Of a DNA stretch of 64,000 bases, positions 1-14,749 are shown piece by piece. A model generated the notes under the pieces. It was not told the DNA's origin. It saw only the letters and a list, made by a program, of their open reading frames with translations, and did not search any database. Position numbers and translations under genes: made by a program. Source of the stretch: Nitrospirales bacterium (GTDB lineage Bacteria > Nitrospirota > Nitrospiria > Nitrospirales > UBA8639); NCBI GenBank assembly GCA_963422365.1, contig OY729426.1:1952001-2016000 (forward strand), given 5' to 3'. Numbering within the stretch: position 1 is the stretch's first letter; each line of letters begins with the position of its first letter.

Positions 1-489
1 GGGCTCACTCGCAACCATTATATCGGCCGAACGTTTATCGAACCCGAACAATCCATTCGACACTTTGGCGTGAAGTTGAAATTAAACGTGGTGCCCGATG
101 TCCTGAAAGGACGTCGGGTGGTGGTAGTGGATGATTCCATTGTCCGTGGCACGACAAGCCGGAAAATCATAAAAATGATCCGTAACGCCGGGGTGAAAGA
201 AGTGCATATGCGCATCAGTTCTCCACCGACGATTGCTCCGTGTTTTTACGGCATTGATACTCCCACCCAAAAAGAACTCATCGGTTCACGCCATTCCATC
301 GAGGAAATCCGCCACTACATCACCGCCGATAGTCTGCGATACTTAAGCTTAGAAGGCATGCTCGACGCAGCCCCAGGGCGAAACGACCATTACTGCCACG
401 CCTGCTTCACCGAACACTATCCCATACCCTTCACCAAAGCCGAAGAACGGCAACTCGGCTTGTTCGATGCGAATTCGGCTAATCGTTAG
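1..489 (+). CDS. purF: amidophosphoribosyltransferase, C-terminal part (starts before the window)
   Basis: Open frame from base 1: [16 protein letters not shown]-binding [20 protein letters not shown]-terminal CHAC Fe-S cysteines. Confidence 0.97.
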
Positions 490-559
490 TTGTTGCCAAG
501 GATGATATCGACAATGCATCGTTCCCGGCAGCCCTTGCCTCTTCGTAGCAACCAGGAAT

Positions 560-1492
560 TCTGTCACCGATTCATCTCTGGCAGCAAACAAAACCTGCAC
601 GAGGAAGAACAGCAACAGCCGCTACAGTAAAAGGAAGTCACCTTTCTTGATTCGATCCTTAACGCTTATCGGGCGAAGAAGGTTGAGCACTTCGCCGTCT
701 TCCATGACAAAAAAGCCGGGCGGCTGTGGGCCGGTCAAATTACCCGTCACCCGCCTGTTTGTGGAAGAGATTATTCTGGAGTGAAAGCATCACTTCGAGT
801 TTGAGATGGGTTGTTTCCCAACATGTTGGACAAGGCGCGTTCTACAAGCATTGACATTGCGCCCCAACACCCCTGCCTGGGTCTTCGACAAGCGGGTGGT
901 GGAGAAGAACCAAGTGGTGCTCCACGACGTGGCATTCATTGAAGTCAAACCGCACGTGAAAGCAGGCAAGAAGAACTAGACCGTGGCAGCGGAACTTACG
1001 GATTTCTCGGTTTTTTCTTCGCAGGACTCAATCGCCAATGCTGAGATAGCCCTCTCGACGAACAAGAAAGCCGACAGCAGGACCGTGGTGGAAAAGGGCT
1101 GGATTGTGAAGGTGTGCAAGGACAAAAATGGCGTCATGAAACGCGAGACGCTGACCCTGCACTGGACGCACTGGATCGGCTACTGGAGCGTGGATTTCGA
1201 CTTCGAGAGCACACGCTAGATCACCCGCGTCCAAAGAGAACTTTCGCGAGATGCGCAAACAATCCTCGAAGGCATGGGCGATGAACAGCAAAATCTGCCA
1301 GTATGGGAAGAGCAGTATACCGGCGACTCCATCTTCGAGAACGAATGGCAGAGTTTCCGCATGAAAAAAGACCGCTCGCTGGAACTCAAAAGCGTAGCCC
1401 ACGAATGCCCGCCAAGCCGCCACAAACTGGCGGTGAAGGTGTTGGACATCTTCGGCAACAACATCATGACGATCATGGAGGTGAGAGTATGA
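560..1492 (+). pseudogene. degraded C-terminal part of a Type III R-M DNA methyltransferase (Mod)
   Basis: Frameshifted fragments with stops, recognisable as this Mod family's C-terminus: ILNAYRA, LPVTRLFVEEIILE, FEFEMG, VFDKR..EKNQVV.HDVAFIEVKP, ELTDFSVF, WIGYWSVDFDFES, FENEWQSFR..KDRSLEL, AVKVLDIFGN. The N-terminal catalytic part is missing. The start is approximate. Confidence 0.8.
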
Positions 1493-4107
1493 AGAATTGG
1501 GATTTCCACGGCGCAAAGTGGTGGAAATTTGACTTTCATACACATACACCTGCATCAGCCGATTTTACAAAGCCGGAAGTTACCTGCGAAGACTGGCTGC
1601 GTGCATATATGGAGAGAGGCATTGATTGTGTAGCGGTCACTGACCATAACTGTGGTAAATGGATTGATGAACTGAAACACACGCTCCGCGATGTGGAAGA
1701 ACAAAATCCTGAATGGTATAGACCTTTCTCTCTGTTTCCAGGCGTCGAAATTTCTGTCAGTGGTGGCGTACATTTGCTCGCCATATTTGATCCAGGAAAA
1801 AAGACAGCGGATATCGATTCATTATTGGGTGCAGTAGCGTATGGTGGAAACAAGGGAAAGAGTGATGCCGAGACCAAAAAGAGCTTGAGTGATGTGATTG
1901 ACGAAATTGTTCAAGCAGACGGTATTGCTATTCCCGCCCATGTGGATAGGAAGAAAGGGCTCTTCAGCTTAAAGGGGATATCACTTGAACAAGTATTGGA
2001 CAATCCTAATATCTACGCGATGGAGTTGTGCAATAAGGATTTTCCCAAGCCTGAGTTGTATAGCTCTAACAAGACTGACTGGACAGAAGTCTGTGGCTCG
2101 GACTTTCATGGCGACCCATCAGGTGTTTTCACCTGGGTAAAGATGGAGGATCCCTCTATTGAGGGGCTTCGCCTTGCCTTGATTGATGGGGATTCGTCGG
2201 TTAACCGGGATATGGACGTAGAGCCAAACCAGTACGCAGAATATGTGATCGAAGAAATCATTGTTGAGAAAGCTAAATATATTGGACGCCCCGAGGCTCT
2301 AACCTGCCAATTCAGCCCTTTTCTGAACACGATCATCGGCGGACGTGGCAGCGGCAAATCCACTTTGCTGGAATTTATGCGTTTAGCCTTGAGACGAACA
2401 CAAGATCTGCCGACTAGACTCAAAGATGACTATCAAGGCTATTTCAGAACAGACGAGGCGGGTGGACTCCTGACTCGAGGTAGCAGTCTGCGCCTTGTCT
2501 ATCGTAAAGGAGATACTCGCTATTGTCTCAACTGGAACGCGACTTCTGCCCCCCCCTCATTAGAAGAGTGGGATGAAGCAGCAGCAGATTGGCAGGAGGT
2601 AGAGGGCGAAATCGAATCGCTGTTTCCGGTCAGTATCTATAGCCAAAAGCAGATTTTTGAATTGGCAAGCGAACCACAAGGGTTGCTGGGGATCATCGAC
2701 AGGGCACCCGAGGTCGAGTTTGACGAATATCACGGGGCATTTCAGGATTGCAGCAACAGTTGCAAGCAAATCATTCAGCAGAAGACTCAACTAACTCAGA
2801 AAATCGACGAAGAAACTAAATTAAAGGGGCAATTGAATGACCTGACACGACAGATTGAACAGGTGGAAAAATCCGGACACAAAGATGCGTTGCAGAAATA
2901 TCGATTACGTCAACAGCAGTTAACTGAGATTAAGTATGTTGAGCAACACTGGGAAGGGTTTTGGGATGGCATGCGCGAGGTGCTCGCCGAGGCAGATGTG
3001 GCAGCAGTTGATAAGAATTTTTTTACCCAACACCCAGAGATATTGACTTCGTTGCAAGGCCAACAACATCAATGGCGAGAGCAGATCAACCAAATACGCA
3101 AGATTGTCGAAAAGCAGGGAGAAGACCTGAATCAATGGCAGACCGAAAAGCAGAAGCAGACTTGGATGAAAGTACTCAATCGGGATTTGCAACAGTACGA
3201 GCAGTTACGCGCTCAGTTGGAGCAACAAGAAATTGATCCGCAAGCCTATCCCAATTTATTGCAAAAATATTCGTGGGTAGAGAAAGAACTCCAACAAATA
3301 GCAGACTATAAGGCGCAAAGAGATAGATTAACAAAACAATGCCGGGCGAAATGTTCAGATGCCAAACGCCACAGGGAGGAATTGACGGAACGAAGAAGAT
3401 GTTTCCTCAGACGTGTTTTGGAGGGCAATGAATCAGTCAAGATAACCGTTCAACCTTTTGCCGAGCCCTGGGCGGATATAGAGAAAACAATCAGGGAAAT
3501 ATTGCAGGTAGGGGATCGTTTTGACAGAGACATTGAGGCACTGAAACAGGTCATTGACGAAAAAGGATGGGAGCCAGCAAAGCAAAGAATATTCGATATT
3601 CGAGGAGGTAAGGACCCTGCCAAAGACTCACGCTTTCAAAGCCATTTACAAGGCTTGCCCAACGAATCGTTACTAGATCTGCGGCTGTGGTTTCCTGAAG
3701 ATGCCTTGCAAATCACCTACGGGGAAAATGGCAAAAGGATCCATGAAGGCTCTCCGGGGCAAAAATCTGCGGCGTTGTTGGCATTTATCCTTGCCCATGG
3801 TGATGAACCTCTCCTGCTTGACCAGCCAGAGGATGATTTGGACAACGACCTTATTTATAGTTTGATCGTGCAGACCATGAGAGCCACTAAAACCAAACGG
3901 CAAATTATTGTTGTGACCCACAATGCCAATATCGTGGTCAATGGTCATTCTGAAATGGTGCACTGTTTGAATGTGGCGAACGGACAATCGCACGTGACAT
4001 CTAAAAGCCTCCAATCCGAAGCCATCAGGAAGCGCATTTGCGATACGATGGAAGGCGGTAGCAAAGCCTTTGAGCAACGCTACAAGCGCATCCATCTAGA
4101 GAGTTAG
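1489..4107 (+). CDS. PHP-domain + ABC/SMC-like ATPase (TrlF family, Ppl-like anti-phage protein), 872 aa
   Basis: PHP motifs DFHTHT, AVTDHN, PGVEI, IPAH, GSDFH; Walker A GGRGSGKST; long coiled coil; signature SPGQ; Walker B LLLDQPEDDLD; H-loop VTHN. ATG at 1489 overlaps the mod stop (ATGA). Confidence 0.88.
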   Translation: MKNWDFHGAKWWKFDFHTHTPASADFTKPEVTCEDWLRAYMERGIDCVAVTDHNCGKWIDELKHTLRDVEEQNPEWYRPFSLFPGVEISVSGGVHLLAIFDPGKKTADIDSLLGAVAYGGNKGKSDAETKKSLSDVIDEIVQADGIAIPAHVDRKKGLFSLKGISLEQVLDNPNIYAMELCNKDFPKPELYSSNKTDWTEVCGSDFHGDPSGVFTWVKMEDPSIEGLRLALIDGDSSVNRDMDVEPNQYAEYVIEEIIVEKAKYIGRPEALTCQFSPFLNTIIGGRGSGKSTLLEFMRLALRRTQDLPTRLKDDYQGYFRTDEAGGLLTRGSSLRLVYRKGDTRYCLNWNATSAPPSLEEWDEAAADWQEVEGEIESLFPVSIYSQKQIFELASEPQGLLGIIDRAPEVEFDEYHGAFQDCSNSCKQIIQQKTQLTQKIDEETKLKGQLNDLTRQIEQVEKSGHKDALQKYRLRQQQLTEIKYVEQHWEGFWDGMREVLAEADVAAVDKNFFTQHPEILTSLQGQQHQWREQINQIRKIVEKQGEDLNQWQTEKQKQTWMKVLNRDLQQYEQLRAQLEQQEIDPQAYPNLLQKYSWVEKELQQIADYKAQRDRLTKQCRAKCSDAKRHREELTERRRCFLRRVLEGNESVKITVQPFAEPWADIEKTIREILQVGDRFDRDIEALKQVIDEKGWEPAKQRIFDIRGGKDPAKDSRFQSHLQGLPNESLLDLRLWFPEDALQITYGENGKRIHEGSPGQKSAALLAFILAHGDEPLLLDQPEDDLDNDLIYSLIVQTMRATKTKRQIIVVTHNANIVVNGHSEMVHCLNVANGQSHVTSKSLQSEAIRKRICDTMEGGSKAFEQRYKRIHLES

Positions 4108-4109
4108 CC

Positions 4110-5351
4110 ATGCTTAATGTCGCACAGATTATAGAAAAGATACGCATCGGTGAAAATTCAGGAATTGAATTCAAGGAAGCCCGCATCAGCAATGATAAAG
4201 TAATGGTGCCTCATCGTGATAATTTGTCGGATGAGTTGGCAGCGTTTGCCAATCACTCCGGTGGTATCATTATTTTTGGCGTTGCGGATAAGACCCGACA
4301 GATTGTCGGCGTTGATCCCTCAAACGTCAGTACGCTGGTCAGCTACATTAGCGAAATTTGCTGCGATTCCGTTGCTCCCCCCATCGTGTATTTTTATGTG
4401 GATAGCGTTCAGGTGACGGATGAAGCAGGTAAAGAAAAGCATCTGGTTTATGTGCAAGTTGAAAGAAGTCTTTGGCTCCATAAAAGCAAAAACGGCTATT
4501 TTTACCGGCATGGGAATAGCAAAAGAGAAATGAGCTCTGAGCATCTGCTGCGGGTAGGGCAAAGCCGCTCACAAGTACGTATTGTTCTCTTTGATGAGCA
4601 GGCCGTCCCCAATACCAGCCAAGACACTCTGCAAAAAGATCTGTACATGCGGTTTGTCGCTGACGACAAGCCGTCATCACTGTGCAAACGCCGACTGCTG
4701 GTGTCACACAACGATAATTTTCATGCAACCGTTGCCGGGGTTTTGATGTGTAGCCCCACGCCCGATGAGCATCTCTACAACAGTTACATTCAAGCAGTTT
4801 CTTACAGCGGTCAAACCAAGGATGCTAATTATCAGATTGATGCGAAGGATTATCGCGGTCCTTTGGATAAACAAATCATTGGGGCCTATCATTTTGTCAA
4901 CCAACACAACCGGATTTCGGCAAAAAAAGAGATGGGCAGAGAAGAAAAACCACAGTACAGCATGAAAGCCGTGTTCGAAGCATTCGTGAATGCGGTTGTA
5001 CACAGGGATTATTCCATACACGGCTCCAAAATCCGCTTATTCATGTTTACTGATCGGCTTGAGCTATATTCGCCTGGAGCACTTGCCAACACGTTAACGA
5101 TTGACAACTTGATTGATAACCAGTTTACGCGCAATGAATTACTGTCTCGTCTGCTGTCTGATTCGTCAATAGATGATGAAATAGGTCATGCCGTGAACCG
5201 AAGATATTTTTTGGAACGTCGTGGCGAAGGTGTCGGTATTATCCTCAATGAGAGTGAGAAACTTAGTGGCAAGCGACCAGTGTATGAACTACTTGGCGGA
5301 GAGCTGAAATTGACCATTCATGCCGCAAAATCATTGCAGAAATCCGATTAG
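4110..5351 (+). CDS. Schlafen/AlbA_2-domain protein with C-terminal HATPase_c_4-like domain
   Basis: N-terminal ENSGIEFKE and LAAFANHSGG.IIFGV (AlbA_2); C-terminal EAFVNAVVHRDYS, DRLELYSPG, RNELL, ERRGEGV. Confidence 0.85.
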   Translation: MLNVAQIIEKIRIGENSGIEFKEARISNDKVMVPHRDNLSDELAAFANHSGGIIIFGVADKTRQIVGVDPSNVSTLVSYISEICCDSVAPPIVYFYVDSVQVTDEAGKEKHLVYVQVERSLWLHKSKNGYFYRHGNSKREMSSEHLLRVGQSRSQVRIVLFDEQAVPNTSQDTLQKDLYMRFVADDKPSSLCKRRLLVSHNDNFHATVAGVLMCSPTPDEHLYNSYIQAVSYSGQTKDANYQIDAKDYRGPLDKQIIGAYHFVNQHNRISAKKEMGREEKPQYSMKAVFEAFVNAVVHRDYSIHGSKIRLFMFTDRLELYSPGALANTLTIDNLIDNQFTRNELLSRLLSDSSIDDEIGHAVNRRYFLERRGEGVGIILNESEKLSGKRPVYELLGGELKLTIHAAKSLQKSD

Positions 5352-6700
5352 TGCCCCTCCACCCCGACTTCCCCATTCTCCCCACGCCGCACTAAACCCC
5401 GATGTACGCTGGTTTCCAGCCAATGAAGCCCTGCGTGAGACAACGATGGATAAACTCATGCCACCACTGGTGGCTGTCCTCCGCCGGAAGGTGAAGGAAT
5501 TTCGCGATAGCGGCTATGCGGGTGCGTCCACACTAGTCGCAGCTTGCTTAACGGGTGGTCCAAGAAACCACACTTGCTGGAGCAAGCCGATGACAGTGTG
5601 GCGGAGTTCCGCTATTTCTTCTCCCAGAGAGAGGCCATAGAGACAATTGTCTATCTCTACGACGCGGTCGGCGCGAAAGACAATAGGACTTGATGTGCTT
5701 CGACAGTAGCGGGGTGGTGTCGGCGGAAATGTTTGATGAAACTTGGCGGCGTTCTGTCATCAAGATGGCGACCGGTAGCGGCAAGACCAGGGTGATGAGC
5801 TTGGCGTTGGCGTGGAATTTTCTACCACAAGCTTTATGAGCCGGAGTCGGAGCTGTCACGCGACGTTCTGGTAATTGCGTCCGGCATCATCATCCTGGAT
5901 CGCCTGTATCGGTATTTTCAGGGCTTGCGGATTTTTTCGCCGACCCGGTCATTTCCGACAACGGCTTTCACGGTCACAACTGGCAAGACGGTTTTCAGTT
6001 GACCCTGCACAAACAGGACGAAGTGCGGGTGACACACCCAACGGGGAACATCTTCCTGACCAATATGCACCGGGTGTATTCCGGTGAGGACCTCCCCCGT
6101 CACTCGACGACGAGAACACGATGGATTACTTCCTCGACAAGCGACCCATGGGAGCCACAACGGATTCCAAGGTCGATGTGTGTTGGGCACGGATGCTTTC
6201 ATGGATTTCGTCGAGTCCATACAGGCGCGGGCGTGGAGTTGGAACGCAAGGCCATGGGTAAAGGCACCGGACCGAAAACGCCAGTAGTGGTAGAGATTGA
6301 TAAGAATAATAAGCAGAAAGATAGAGATGCTCTGGACATTGAGAGTCCGGTGCTGACGCCGCGTGTTTATCGGGAATACAAGAATCCGGCCGATCTTGAT
6401 GTCGCGACGCTGGAAGTCCAAACGGTTAACTCCCGACAATTCAGCGAGGAAGATCAGTGCGAGATCGTATTCAAGGACATCACCACCGGCGAAGTGACCC
6501 ATATGACCGTATTGGATGGCGCGGGAGTTGCTGACTACCACAGCATGATCGGCTACTTCGCACAGACGGTAATGAGGAACGGCGACTGGTGAGCAGTTAC
6601 GATGTGCTCTACGGTAAAATCAAGGGCTCTGTGCGGGATGAGTTATATGGGGAGACGGTTGAACTTGAATCCCCGAACACACTTCGCAATCTTTCCAGGC
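5351..6700 (+). pseudogene. degraded Type III restriction endonuclease (Res, DEAD/DEAH helicase)
   Basis: GTG at 5351, then frameshifted fragments PLHPDFP/HSPH..PDVRWFP, REAIETIVYLYD, Walker A KMATGSGKT, IFLTN.HRVY. An apparent internal deletion jumps to GTDAFMDFVESIQ, PRVYREYKN, IVFKDITTGEVTH, YDVLYGK. The end is approximate. Confidence 0.82.
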
Positions 6701-6903
6701 GTGCAGCGACGTGGTGTCGTACGCGAAGAACTACCTGGCGGTGAATTTCAAATTATGTCTCCATCTCAAAGAGTTAAGAGATAACAGAGTCTCCCGCTTT
6801 TATCTGAATTGCCCATCTGAAAAATCGTGTGGTAAGATCCAAAAGTTGTTTGAGGTCTGTCGGTGTCTACCTTGACCGCTTCTTACTAAATTGGAGGATG
6901 CCA

Positions 6904-7449
6904 ATGAAACGCCAATGCTCTCTCTTTATACTCGTTACGTTTTTTCTCACCATGCTGACGACGGCCTGGGCTGGTGGATTTTTTAAGGTCGGGGAGTCGG
7001 CCCCAACCTTCTCGCTTACCTCAGTCACAGGGGAAACCGTCTCGCTGCAAGACTTCCAAGGCAAAGTAGTGGTGCTTGGACTTTTTCACATTTGCGAACC
7101 CTGCCGCATTCAAGGTACGAATTTACAAAAAGTGCATGACGCCACGCGCGGACAAAACGTCGCGGTGATCGGCGTGAACTCCTCAGGCGATTCCCAAGCC
7201 GACGTGCTAGAATTTCTCAGCGTCTTTCCCGTGAACATCACGTATCCCTATCTCACGGATCCAGACCAAATGACCGATAAATTATATGGCGGCGGACGCT
7301 TTATTCCGAACGTCTATATTCTGGATCAAAATGGCGTGATTCGATGGCAACAAGTCGGCAACATGGATTTGGCGAATCATACGGCGATCCTGGATGAGGT
7401 GAATAAATTATTGGCCGGTGAGCCATCATCCGGATCGACCGACTTATAA
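6904..7449 (+). CDS. exported TlpA/redoxin (AhpC-TSA fold) thiol-disulfide oxidoreductase
   Basis: Signal peptide (..TTAWA), APTFSL, CxxC (CEPC), IPNVYILDQNGVIR; GGAGG RBS at 6893-6897. Confidence 0.85.
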   Translation: MKRQCSLFILVTFFLTMLTTAWAGGFFKVGESAPTFSLTSVTGETVSLQDFQGKVVVLGLFHICEPCRIQGTNLQKVHDATRGQNVAVIGVNSSGDSQADVLEFLSVFPVNITYPYLTDPDQMTDKLYGGGRFIPNVYILDQNGVIRWQQVGNMDLANHTAILDEVNKLLAGEPSSGSTDL

Positions 7450-10915: not shown

Positions 10916-13411
10916 ATGACCTTTATACTGAACATTCTGTACCACGTTGTTATCCAGCCTCTGGAAATCAGTTTCGGATTTCTATTCCAGGCCTTTACCG
11001 AACAGACGACCGTCGGCATGGCCATTGTGCTGATTAGCCTGGTGGTCAATGTGCTGCTGTTGCCGGTGCAGTGGCACAGTGATACTGCGCTGGCGCGATT
11101 GCGGCAAAAACAGAAAGCCATCGAGCCGACAATCCATGACATCAAACGGGCGTATCGGGGATCAAAACGATTTTTCATGTTGCGTACGCTGTATCGGCAG
11201 GCCGATTATCACCCGGCCATGGAGCTGAAAACCACCCTCGGACTTATGGTTCAAATTCCATTTTTCATCGCCGCCTGGCGATTTCTAAGCCAGGAGCCGG
11301 CGCTGGTACAGACAGCGTTCGGGCCGCTGTCGGACCTCAGCCGTGCGGATGGCCTGGGACCGCTGGGGCTCAATCTCCTGCCGTTGCTGATGACCCTCCT
11401 GAGCCTCATCTCGGCCATGCTGTATCACCAACGCCACGGGCGCGGTGCGTGGCTTCAGACCGGCGGGCTGGCGGTGGTGTTTCTGATTCTGCTATATCCG
11501 TCAGCCTCCGGCGTGGTGGTGTACTGGACGGTCAACAATCTGTTTTCGCTGCTGAAACATATCGTTCCTCTGCGCCGTCCTGTCGCCATGACGGATGACG
11601 ACCCTGCCAGCCTCCTGTTTCTATCCTCATTGAGTGCGCGTCGAGTCCACGAAGTGTATGCGCTGTCGGTCTGCATTCTGCTGGCGACCATCTTTTATAT
11701 TGCGCCGCTCAATCTGTTCAATTCGGACCCGCTGGAGTTCCGTCATTTTTTCTCCGATATACTGGCGTTTCATTATTCGATCTTCGTGCGAATCGCCATC
11801 GTGTTGACTGTTGTGTACCTGTGCGCATCGGCGGGAATCAAACGGGTGCTTGCCGGCGTGGTGTTTTATGTCGCCTTGGTCAGTGCGCTCTATGGCTACG
11901 TGTTCAAGGGCGATTATGGGCCAATGACGGCCTTTACTTTCAACAATAACAATCTGTCCGAATTGTGGCCGGATATGGTCATTATGTATGACTTCGCCAT
12001 TGTGGTGGTCACGGCGGCGGGCTGCTGGTTGCTGCTGTCGCGGGCAGTCAAGCTGGTGCCCGATATTCTGCGCGTACTGAGCTTGAGTCTTTGTATTTAC
12101 GCGGTGTTTATCAGCGTTGAAGCCATAAAAGTGCTACCCCCCCCCCCCCCCCATAAAATTGAACGGCACGATATAGCGGTATTATCCGATCAGACCACGG
12201 CGGCCTCAGCCGAAAAGTTTTACGCCTTTTCCAGGGATCGGCAAAACGTGGTGGTGGTGATGTTGGATATGTTTGATGGCGGCGCGATCGATGAATTGTT
12301 GCGCCGCTATCCGCATTTAAGAGCCGAACTGGACGGCTTTATCTGGTATCCCAACACCGTGACTCCAGGCACCTCCACGCTCGTATCCGAGCCAGCCATC
12401 CACGGCGGTCACCGGTTTAGCCCTGAACACTTCGTCGATTCCATCAATGCTAATCCTCAGTTGGTTGACGATTATATCGTCGGCGGCTATGAACTCATGG
12501 TGGACGTGTTTGCGGAGGCCGACTTCCGTATTGCCCTGACCGGCGTGCAATCAATTGGATGTAGCCAGATTGAAGCCCGAATTGACTCGCCCCACCTCAC
12601 CCGTTGCATCGGCATGCACGACTATGGAACCGTATTTGCCGACTATTGGGCCACGGCTCACCCAGAGGAATTTTCGACCTTTTTCAATGGGGATCTGCGT
12701 CTGTCTAGACGGAAATCGATAGGGAGAAAATTACTGGGGGTGATAGGTCTGTTTCGTGTTGCACCCTATCGGCTCAGGCAACATATTTACCAGCGTCAGT
12801 GGTTGGGTCAAGTCAAGGGTACGGGGAAATGGAGACAGTTTTCTGCCCTGGCTTCTCTGCCCAGCGTCAGTTTTATCGATGACTCGCCTTTGCGTACCCT
12901 ACACTACCTGCAGACTCAGCTGACACATCACCCGTTCAATGTCAGCGAAGGGTGTCAGCTCTTGGTGCATACCGGCTATCATGAACAGGATAGGGCAACT
13001 TGGGCGCAATACTGTACGCTCAAACTCTTGGGCAACTGGATAACCTGGATGAAAGCGCACCACGTCTATGATAATACCCGGATTATTTTCGTCTCGGATC
13101 ATAATCTTTTCGAGGTGAAGAACGATCTGCCTGTGCTTATGAGCGTGCATGGGTTGATGATGATTAAGGATTTTGCATCTCATGGCCCGGTGAGGGAAGA
13201 TCGTCGGCTGCTATCCGCGGCAGATACCCTGGCCATTGCCTACTCCGGCTTTGGTGACGATGCCCGCCTGATTCAGGATCCGACCCGACACTCCATTGCC
13301 AACCGAAAGTTGCGGGTCAGTAAGTACAGTGGCAACCAAAAACGCATTATCGCCCAGTACGAAGTCACCGGATCTATTTTCGAGCCAGAGAACTGGAAGC
13401 AGATCAAATAG
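10916..13411 (+). CDS. fusion of a YidC/Oxa1-like membrane domain, extra TM helices and an alkaline-phosphatase-superfamily (LtaS/sulfatase-like) domain
   Basis: YidC-like N-terminus: GMAIVLISLVVNVLLLP, QIPFFIA, DLSRAD, NLLPLLMT, SGVVVYWTVNNLFSL. C-terminus: NVVVVMLD, candidate Thr nucleophile in GTSTLVS, THHPF, VYDNTRIIFVSDH. Confidence 0.8.
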   Translation: MTFILNILYHVVIQPLEISFGFLFQAFTEQTTVGMAIVLISLVVNVLLLPVQWHSDTALARLRQKQKAIEPTIHDIKRAYRGSKRFFMLRTLYRQADYHPAMELKTTLGLMVQIPFFIAAWRFLSQEPALVQTAFGPLSDLSRADGLGPLGLNLLPLLMTLLSLISAMLYHQRHGRGAWLQTGGLAVVFLILLYPSASGVVVYWTVNNLFSLLKHIVPLRRPVAMTDDDPASLLFLSSLSARRVHEVYALSVCILLATIFYIAPLNLFNSDPLEFRHFFSDILAFHYSIFVRIAIVLTVVYLCASAGIKRVLAGVVFYVALVSALYGYVFKGDYGPMTAFTFNNNNLSELWPDMVIMYDFAIVVVTAAGCWLLLSRAVKLVPDILRVLSLSLCIYAVFISVEAIKVLPPPPPHKIERHDIAVLSDQTTAASAEKFYAFSRDRQNVVVVMLDMFDGGAIDELLRRYPHLRAELDGFIWYPNTVTPGTSTLVSEPAIHGGHRFSPEHFVDSINANPQLVDDYIVGGYELMVDVFAEADFRIALTGVQSIGCSQIEARIDSPHLTRCIGMHDYGTVFADYWATAHPEEFSTFFNGDLRLSRRKSIGRKLLGVIGLFRVAPYRLRQHIYQRQWLGQVKGTGKWRQFSALASLPSVSFIDDSPLRTLHYLQTQLTHHPFNVSEGCQLLVHTGYHEQDRATWAQYCTLKLLGNWITWMKAHHVYDNTRIIFVSDHNLFEVKNDLPVLMSVHGLMMIKDFASHGPVREDRRLLSAADTLAIAYSGFGDDARLIQDPTRHSIANRKLRVSKYSGNQKRIIAQYEVTGSIFEPENWKQIK
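12137..12152 (+). repeat. poly-C homopolymer (16 C) inside the CDS
   Basis: gtgcta-C16-ataaaatt, encoding L-PPPPP-H. Confidence 0.95.
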
Positions 13412-13420
13412 CAAACCGCC

Positions 13421-14749
13421 ATGGCGCACATACCTTTGTCTATAAAGATATTGCCGACTGTTTTGATTATCCTGGTGCTGACCAGCACGCCGGCTTACGC
13501 CTATCTCGATCCGGGAACCGGCAGTCTGCTGTTCGCCGCGATCTCCGGGCTAGTGGCCAGCGCGTATTTCGCCTTGAAGGGGTTGATGTATCGGCTATCT
13601 TCCTTGATTGGTCTTGTGAACAAGACCTCAGCGAGGCACCGCCAGAAATATGGCATTGTGTTGTACTCTGAAGGCGGGCAATACTCTTCCACCTTTGTGC
13701 CGCTGATACAGGCGCTGGCGGAGCGCAACGTGCCCTGCGTTTATCTGAGTTCCGACCCGGACGACCCCGGACTGCGTGCCGACTATCCGCTGCTTGAAAC
13801 CGAGTTCATCGGCAGGGGAAACGCTGCCTACCGGCGGTTGAACTGGCTGGAAGCGGACCTGTGCGTGTTCACCACGCCTGGGCTGGACGTCTTGCAGATC
13901 AGGCGCTCCCCTAGGGTGAAACATTATTGCCATATCGTCCATGCGCCGACGGATATTTGGCTGTACGAGCTGTTTTCGTTCGACTATTTCGATACCTTGA
14001 TGTGCAGCGGTGAGCACCAGATCCGCAGCCTGCGAGCGCTTGAGCAAACGCGCGGCACGCCCCCTAAGACCTTGCTGAAAACCGGCTGTGTGTATTTTGA
14101 CGGCCTGCTCCGGCGGGCCCGTGCCGATGGCGCGGCGAACCCCTCACCCTCCGGTTCCTCGACACGTACCCTGTTGATTGCCCCCACTTGGGGCCAAAAC
14201 AGTCTGCTGCTGCGCTGCGGCAACGCCCTGTTGCATACCCTGCTGGACACCGGACATCGAGTGATCGTACGGCCGCATCCGCAAAGTTTCGTCTCCGACA
14301 AAACCTTGATCAATGACTTCGAAAAAACCTGGCAGGGTAGCGCCAATGTGCAGTGGGATACCAGCAACGACGCCTACTCCAGCATGGCCGCTGCCGCTGT
14401 GCTCATTTCCGATATTTCAGGCATTATTTTTGATTACGCCTTCGTCTTCGAAAAGCCGGTGATCACCATCGCCGCCCATCCCGACCTGTGCGGCAAGGAA
14501 GCCATCGACCTGCCTGAGGGCGAAACCATCTGGGAACTCGACGCCATCGGCAAACTGAGCACCGTCGTCCCAGTAGCCCAGATCGATCAGCTGCCGACCA
14601 TCATCCAACAACTCGCATTACCTTCGGCCCCGCGATCCCAGGCCCGCCGTCTATGTGCCGAATCACTCTTCCATTTCGGTGAAGCCGGCGCGGTCGCAGC
14701 CGAACAGTTGATCGCAATCCAGCAGGGGCTTGAGATCGATCGAAGGTAG
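13421..14749 (+). CDS. CDP-glycerol glycerophosphotransferase (TagF/TagB-like) family protein
   Basis: N-terminal AYAYLDPGTGS plus TM; LLIAPTWG, IVRPHPQ, LISDISGIIFDYAF..KPVI motifs. Confidence 0.85.
   Translation: MAHIPLSIKILPTVLIILVLTSTPAYAYLDPGTGSLLFAAISGLVASAYFALKGLMYRLSSLIGLVNKTSARHRQKYGIVLYSEGGQYSSTFVPLIQALAERNVPCVYLSSDPDDPGLRADYPLLETEFIGRGNAAYRRLNWLEADLCVFTTPGLDVLQIRRSPRVKHYCHIVHAPTDIWLYELFSFDYFDTLMCSGEHQIRSLRALEQTRGTPPKTLLKTGCVYFDGLLRRARADGAANPSPSGSSTRTLLIAPTWGQNSLLLRCGNALLHTLLDTGHRVIVRPHPQSFVSDKTLINDFEKTWQGSANVQWDTSNDAYSSMAAAAVLISDISGIIFDYAFVFEKPVITIAAHPDLCGKEAIDLPEGETIWELDAIGKLSTVVPVAQIDQLPTIIQQLALPSAPRSQARRLCAESLFHFGEAGAVAAEQLIAIQQGLEIDRR

Follow-up and report, generated by a model that had tools for sequence, protein, structure and literature searches.

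A trlF-trlG gene pair kept intact between the remnants of a type III restriction-modification operon in a Nitrospirales genome

The window analysed here is the whole stretch of 64,000 nucleotides from a Nitrospirales bacterium (assembly GCA_963422365.1, contig OY729426.1, positions 1,952,001 to 2,016,000). Near its start, two fully open genes lie between the remnants of the mod and res genes of a type III restriction-modification (R-M) operon. These genes, A (open reading frame, ORF, 1489-4107) and B (ORF 4110-5351), were regarded in a preliminary description of this DNA as a pair not previously described. Judged by their sequences, they are the already named trlF-trlG and match the pair of that name in the temperature restriction locus (TRL) of Photorhabdus laumondii, trlR-trlF-trlG (Hapeshi et al., bioRxiv 10.1101/2020.06.02.129163 = PMC7554251). 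Because this pair is already named and common, the locus is not in itself a discovery. Its value is that of a clean natural experiment, in which the cargo was kept, the host restriction operon decayed, and intact operons of congeners are at hand for comparison. The features, in window coordinates, are as follows.

490..570, no strand: deletion junction after purF (blastn blocks and local alignments)
571..1492, + strand: remnant of type III mod, covering codons ~450-773 of its intact orthologue (comparison with intact orthologues)
1477..1483, + strand: Shine-Dalgarno-like GGAGGTG for gene A, within the 3′ end of mod (sequence)
1489..4107, + strand: gene A, PHP phosphoesterase fused to a coiled-coil ABC ATPase, trlF/Ppl-type, 872 amino acids (aa) (profile matches, motifs)
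4110..5351, + strand: gene B, trlG-type Schlafen with GHKL ATPase, 413 aa (Pfam, AlphaFold, Foldseek)
5351..6755, + strand: type III res remnant, 3′ end lost (comparison with intact orthologues)

Some 17 lesions (frameshifts, stops and large deletions) have accumulated in mod and res together, judged against the orthologues of three genus-mates of the window genome (G000), the congeners G019, G003 and G004. In all three the type III R-M system is intact, with an N6 methyltransferase domain in Mod and helicase motifs in Res, whereas it is destroyed in the window. The mod remnant has three frameshifts (near 727, 808 and 867) and three stops (628, 977 and 1217), and its methyltransferase domain and DPPF motif are deleted. 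In res there are eight one-base indels (near 5371, 5530, 5684, 5816, 5936, 6096, 6226 and 6575), one in-frame stop and two large deletions (775 nt at 6178, 220 nt at 6696); the remnant extends to ~6755, slightly beyond the 6700 given before. Assembly error as the cause of these breaks is ruled out, since public contigs reproduce the sequence exactly: one, possibly itself the source sequence, covers 400-7000 with 0 differences, and contigs of a second study show 0 differences across each matched piece.

Gene A is open from the ATG at 1489, and this ATG is overlapped by the TGA of mod at 1490-1492. A 2-nt gap, CC, at 4108-4109 separates A from B, and the TAG of gene B at 5349-5351 overlaps the GTG of res at 5351-5353. 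The lesions in mod and res and all three tight junctions are thus as the preliminary description had them. The order mod-A-B-res is present intact in G019, G003 and G004, at the same site after purF in two of the three. The mod/A and A/B junctions are identical in 3/3 congeners, whereas the B/res overlap is private to the window, the congeners having a short gap and an ATG there. About 2.15 kb found after purF in G003 and G004, comprising intergenic DNA, small ORFs and the 5′ 60% of mod, is gone in the window, and with it the native upstream region of the operon. Between purF and mod, L021 and L022 have a segment that the window has lost, in which a small cysteine-rich ORF and an HNH-like ORF can be read by eye. 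A scan for terminator-like sites after purF found none, as did a scan for + strand promoter-like sites before 4246; the promoter and terminator scans performed at chance level (7 versus 7.1; 8 versus 7.9).

The mod-res interval had been called a hotspot for cargo, and this is borne out by G018, G014 and G036, in which the same chassis (Res 88-90%) holds other genes. The alternative cargo (L138:7212-9089; L139:9731-11677; L141:7249-9067; L137:6895-8750) is of two kinds. The first, in three genomes, is an NsnB/AriA-like ABC ATPase with a 138-140 aa gene that has no PADLOC match; the second consists of three small genes, also without a PADLOC match. Elsewhere in the window genome, a type III-like locus at G000 C1 644169-651561 has open mod- and res-like frames with a 271-aa gene between them, and another, at G000 C1 400113-404764, is fragmented. 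Farther along the window, at 10916-14749, lie an 831-aa ORF resembling a membrane protein and, behind it, a 442-aa ORF, in DNA with G+C above that of the flanks.

Gene A matches the TrlF family NF045780 with 584.1 bits against a cut-off of 350, residues 7-869 aligning to model positions 1-944. The PADLOC Ppl profile aligns over 8-868 with 456 bits (E 8e-137), against 119 bits for Yersinia TrlF, and the NCBIfam Ppl model NF042955 gives 547.6 bits, short of its cut-off of 1000. The fusion of PHP and ABC ATPase that defines Ppl is present with its metal ligands and Walker motifs. The PHP ligands are D15/H17/H19, D52/H53, E87, H95, H151 and D205/H207; the ATPase has Walker A at G284-T292, the signature at S755-Q758, Walker B at D778-Q779 and H811. 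All of these ligands and ABC motifs are shared without change by 10/10 aligned homologues. A PDB sequence search with gene A gave no solved relative beyond an ABC-F fragment, and phage collections gave one partial match.

Gene B consists of AlbA_2 (15-142) and HATPase_c_4 (PF13749, 305-403), both above the Pfam cut-offs. It carries the Schlafen triad E15-x4-E20-x-K22, an AAFAN box at 44-48 and the pair E290/N294, all of them motifs defined for Schlafen-Argonaute; the triad is kept in 113/117 and the E..N pair in 117/117 aligned proteins. The AlphaFold model has a pLDDT of 88 and matches 3LMM, Schlafens and histidine kinases in Foldseek, and a PDB sequence search returned only 3LMM and Schlafens. 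Phage collections gave 19 distant matches, and a genome-contig scan with gene B alone gave one locus. Profile, fold and motifs thus agree with the domains first assigned to both genes, a Ppl-like architecture for A and AlbA_2/Schlafen for B, and both genes retain their catalytic motifs in full-length frames.

Relatives of gene B also occur in other arrangements. Those in L043, L044, L045 and L047 (583-585 aa, 38-41%) have a C-terminal extension and no trlF, and sit behind what appear to be type I methyltransferase genes. Eight long homologues (n=8) were inspected for fusions. In P0123, P0124 and P0125 (915-916 aa) the Schlafen-GHKL part is fused to a region that matches Dsr1 in its C-terminal part, apparently a swap of effectors. 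Fusions of a Ppl-type protein with a Schlafen-GHKL (Schlatpase) module, 3/8 of the long homologues, were not counted as support for coupling, because every one of them either has an incomplete ATPase or Schlafen domain or is joined at what looks like a frameshift.

The contrast between the dead and the living genes of this operon can be expressed in numbers. At the lesion density of the R-M remnants (17 in 2.34 kb), about 28 lesions are expected in A and B, and 0 are observed; the Poisson P of ~6e-13 is rough and assumes equal mutability. The ratio of nonsynonymous to synonymous divergence (dN/dS) is 0.21-0.25 for gene A to the three congeners and 0.13 for gene B to the nearest sequenced gene. 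Window-private nonsynonymous/synonymous counts (N/S) are raised in mod and res (55/64 versus 24/122 in relatives, p 2e-7) and show no enrichment in gene A (34/54 versus 43/95, p 0.25). The pair has therefore stayed under purifying selection since the restriction genes died, independently of the R-M system, as first supposed.

Both genes have also exchanged alleles. The dS of gene A between G003 and G004 is 0.15, against 0.6-0.9 for mod/res. Gene B looks like a mosaic, in which codons 1-150 follow the congeners (pS 0.3-0.6), while the remaining 3′ two thirds show saturation against the congeners and lie nearer to the gammaproteobacterial gene of L048, which is 78% identical. In a relative ~87% identical to the window, the same type of gene B leads into the beginning of a res gene free of the first frameshift; the exchange of B therefore predates the decay of res, and a recent rescue of gene B by allele swap is unlikely.

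The two families recur together well beyond the window, as the preliminary description had anticipated. Gene A is present in 17/61 relatives and in 465 plasmid records. A B-type gene directly follows it at 17/18 loci of relatives, 4/4 loci of the phylum, 2/3 plasmid loci and 0/4 viral loci, and at 18/44 evaluable metagenomic loci. The metagenomic set of 62 loci derives from the best 80 of 557 matches, and supplied 47 of the 78 sequences in the tree, for which only A homologues of at least 780 aa with the DQPE motif were used. The pair has co-diversified: the A and B trees are congruent, with a Mantel rho of 0.90 for 39 pairs and 0.77 for the 24 nearest, three short B genes being left out.

The surroundings of the pair are those of defence operons. 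Relatives often lie directly behind BREX, Hma or R-M methyltransferases, and solo A genes occupy the same kinds of slot. Neighbours were scanned for 16 of the 18 paired metagenomic loci, and 12/16 have a PADLOC match alongside; nine of these have a PglX or HmaB methyltransferase directly upstream and three more a defence gene downstream. Schlafen-histidine-kinase genes have been noted as back-up effectors in BREX (PMC12839542), a paper in whose main text a word search found no mention of Ppl or PHP. In Supplementary Table 3 of PMC13056530, the HTH-less HisKinase type accounts for 32/35 of the Schlafen genes that neighbour a PplA gene, versus 2017/5930 overall, in rows that are not independent of one another.

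We tentatively favour, somewhat short of calling it probable, a reading in which a trlF-trlG cassette from the mod-res slot was kept by selection after the death of the R-M system as a likely back-up anti-phage module, TrlF probably restraining TrlG. The cassette would ride in the mod-res slot of the type III restriction operon; DNA ends and nucleotide depletion would be the signals sensed by TrlF, as by Ppl, and TrlF would probably keep the predicted tRNase TrlG restrained until an infection sets it free and growth comes to a halt. The exonuclease and sensing role of gene A would follow from the papers on Ppl, and ATP-driven oligomerisation and tRNA cleavage by gene B from those on SLFN-pAgo and pSlfn5. 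The least secure part is that A may restrain B as AriA does AriB in the PARIS system, with the heat arrest of Photorhabdus a possible misfiring of the module.

Three sets of data bear on whether A acts on B. Among the heat-tolerant mutants of Photorhabdus, 20/29 sequenced isolates and 2 more (22) had lesions in trlG, and none in the larger trlF (available parts of PMC7554251). The lack of trlF mutants despite the larger target argues against TrlF as an obligatory activator. The second set consists of 18 loci with close relatives of gene B (at least 53% identity to it). The Schlafen triad is intact in 10/10 with trlF upstream; without trlF it is lost in 3/7 and kept in 4/7, and at one locus both genes are broken. 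The three losses, with trlF deleted or decayed and the trlG active site altered (G-E-Q; E-E-E) or deleted, are L048:5849-7242 (= L170), L171 and L178. Only 49 codons of trlF are left in L048, where 2/5 of the gene B changes at 150 conserved sites fall in the triad (post hoc P 0.003). Third, gene A often persists alone, as in a second, distant pair of the window genome (L031:6863-10824, G000 C1 ~1305.9-1309.8 kb; 25-30% identity), in which trlF is intact and trlG is split by a one-base deletion relative to the gene of G017. The triad and Photorhabdus data weakly favour a restraint of B by A. Of the two-component module proposed earlier, an ATPase sensor with an RNase effector, a likely defence role stands, given the PADLOC neighbours. 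An obligatory switching-on of B by A is doubtful, in view of the missing trlF escape mutants and of the A genes found alone.

Several observations weigh against this reading. Gene A stands alone at 26/44 of the evaluable metagenomic loci, among the best 80 of 557 matches, and at 4/4 viral ones. The association of triad loss with trlF loss has a Fisher p of 0.051, and the four trlF-less close loci with an intact triad include two that are 96% identical, so that they represent ~3 events. More distant intact B genes without trlF also exist (L159, L176, L179 and L187); B is therefore not always harmful alone, and any restraint is not absolute. Tree congruence could also be expected from simple co-transfer. 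The comparison of window-private N/S between gene A and mod with res is not significant (p 0.32). At 0.5, the dS of gene A is below the 0.6-1.4 of the genes on either side, and an exchange of alleles may thus have contributed to keeping it intact. The native upstream region is lost. The window pair is only 26-27% identical to the Yersinia ruckeri plasmid proteins (L049) and falls in a separate clade in both trees; gene B has E-E-K where Yersinia TrlG has E-Q-K, with Q at the second acidic position, so the Photorhabdus genetics may not transfer. No tested anti-phage trlF-trlG or Ppl-Schlafen pair was found in the literature, subscription papers lying outside the search. Finally, two pSlfn1 (Schlafen-HisKinase) genes, tested on their own, failed to protect against 12 phages (bioRxiv 10.64898/2026.05.29.728809; PMC13056530). 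This last point is tempered by the lack of Ppl neighbours: one of the two lies in a P2-like prophage as a split gene, and no Ppl neighbour is entered for either in the available data, so a trlF-trlG-type pair is not covered by that panel.

Many of these points would be met if A and B were independent layers, A working alone as a Ppl and B being a separately triggered Schlafen effector, with only promoter and slot in common. This we hold to be unlikely, yet it deserves a serious hearing. The solo A genes and the intact B genes without trlF, close and distant, fit it well; the Ppl of E. coli is a single-gene system, and a PplA call lies near only 32/2017 pSlfn1 genes in Supplementary Table 3 of PMC13056530. 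The absence of trlF mutants in Photorhabdus would also fit a TrlF that plays no part. Independence is at odds with trees that agree across clades merely 25% alike, with the conserved tight junction, and with the loss of the triad in trlF-less loci as against 0/10 with trlF.

In a model along the lines of the preliminary description, A would sense infection and turn B on, either directly or via a product made by its PHP domain, and B would be silent without A. We consider this improbable. Such a scheme accounts for the inactivity of standalone Schlafen-HisKinase genes in the phage panel and for the tolerance of intact B without A. B-type modules are also fused to other sensors, namely pAgo and, in 3/8 long homologues, the Dsr1-like C-terminal region, and the decay of B after loss of A might reflect disuse. 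With an activator, the larger trlF should have given the commonest escapers in Photorhabdus, and none appeared among the 22 trlG mutants; the few changes in L048 cluster in the catalytic triad, in contrast to decay at random.

A growth brake with a role in stress or temperature and no anti-phage function, as proposed for the Photorhabdus locus, is very improbable here. It does have on its side the sole published trlF-trlG phenotype, a TrlG-dependent, heat-induced growth arrest with heat-induced transcription (available parts of PMC7554251). The patchy, horizontally moved distribution among relatives and plasmids and the location within BREX, Hma and R-M operons speak against it, and so does the PADLOC Ppl score of gene A, which is nearer to Ppl than to Yersinia TrlF. 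A tblastn search for TrlR with the 79-aa gene of L049 (E 0.01) found no match in the genome or the fetched loci, where a short, distant gene could escape. Equally scant is the probability of a silent relic, a pair unexpressed since the upstream deletion and intact through refreshment by recombination or because decay has yet to come: the deletion and the movement of A and B alleles between lineages agree with it, and the missing ~28 lesions, a nearest known A allele at dS 0.5, a B allele older than the decay of res and the lack of a terminator found that would block read-through from purF do not.

The restraint of TrlG by TrlF, if it holds, would reach beyond this locus. It is possible, though rather doubtful, that in many genomes Ppl/TrlF guards a Schlafen-GHKL tRNase in a PARIS-like back-up pair that stands behind DNA methyltransferases and outlasts the restriction system. 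The Schlafen-HisKinase class makes up 34% of prokaryotic Schlafens, two members are inactive alone, and the available parts of the literature examined give no trigger for it. A guard would supply a regulator for part of this commonest bacterial Schlafen class, and would recast the temperature restriction of Photorhabdus as autoimmunity. The tendency of TrlG active-site loss to follow loss of trlF makes the coupling of A and B a testable question.

Among known systems, PARIS is an analogue in its working and not a member of the same family. Its ABC ATPase AriA sequesters the tRNase AriB and releases it on infection (PMC11464382). AriB is a TOPRIM protein, whereas gene B has the Schlafen fold and gave no AriB or TOPRIM match; gene A, which gave only short, weak AriA matches (39 bits), has a PHP nuclease of its own and is often found alone.

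Gene B shares with the Schlatpase supradomain, or pSlfn1 (bioRxiv 10.64898/2026.05.29.728809; PMC13056530), the union of AlbA_2 with GHKL, the motif E(x)4(D/E)xK, the SAFAN-like box and the ATP ligands (E290/N294 versus E314/N318). It differs in having no Argonaute or other fused sensor. The Argonaute-fused Schlafen-GHKL module tetramerises on ATP and cuts tRNA, as demonstrated for RzAgo only (bioRxiv 10.64898/2026.05.29.728809).

With Ppl (PADLOC PDLC02208, NCBIfam NF042955), gene A shares the full-length PHP and ABC ATPase with all motifs. In addition, the A protein of L051, 36% identical to gene A, is entered as Gao_Ppl PplA in Supplementary Table 3 of PMC13056530. Ppl is reported to be an anti-phage 3′-5′ single-stranded DNA exonuclease freed by NTP depletion and 3′-OH ends, and to be toxic without RecBCD (PMC12904381 and PMC13648713, citing Xu et al., Mol Cell 2026). 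Unlike E. coli Ppl, gene A has a Schlafen partner and misses the NF042955 cut-off.

The TRL locus is likewise among the closest systems. There too trlF is followed by a tightly linked trlG, and TrlG has AlbA_2 at 14-128 and HATPase_c_4 at 298-365; the window has the same AlbA_2 and HATPase_c_4 gene directly after trlF. The window pair differs, besides its divergence, in being nested in a type III R-M operon, and the available parts of PMC7554251 propose no defence role. The trlF-trlG pair is thus named but mechanistically unexplained, and the window holds a real copy of it that is under selection.

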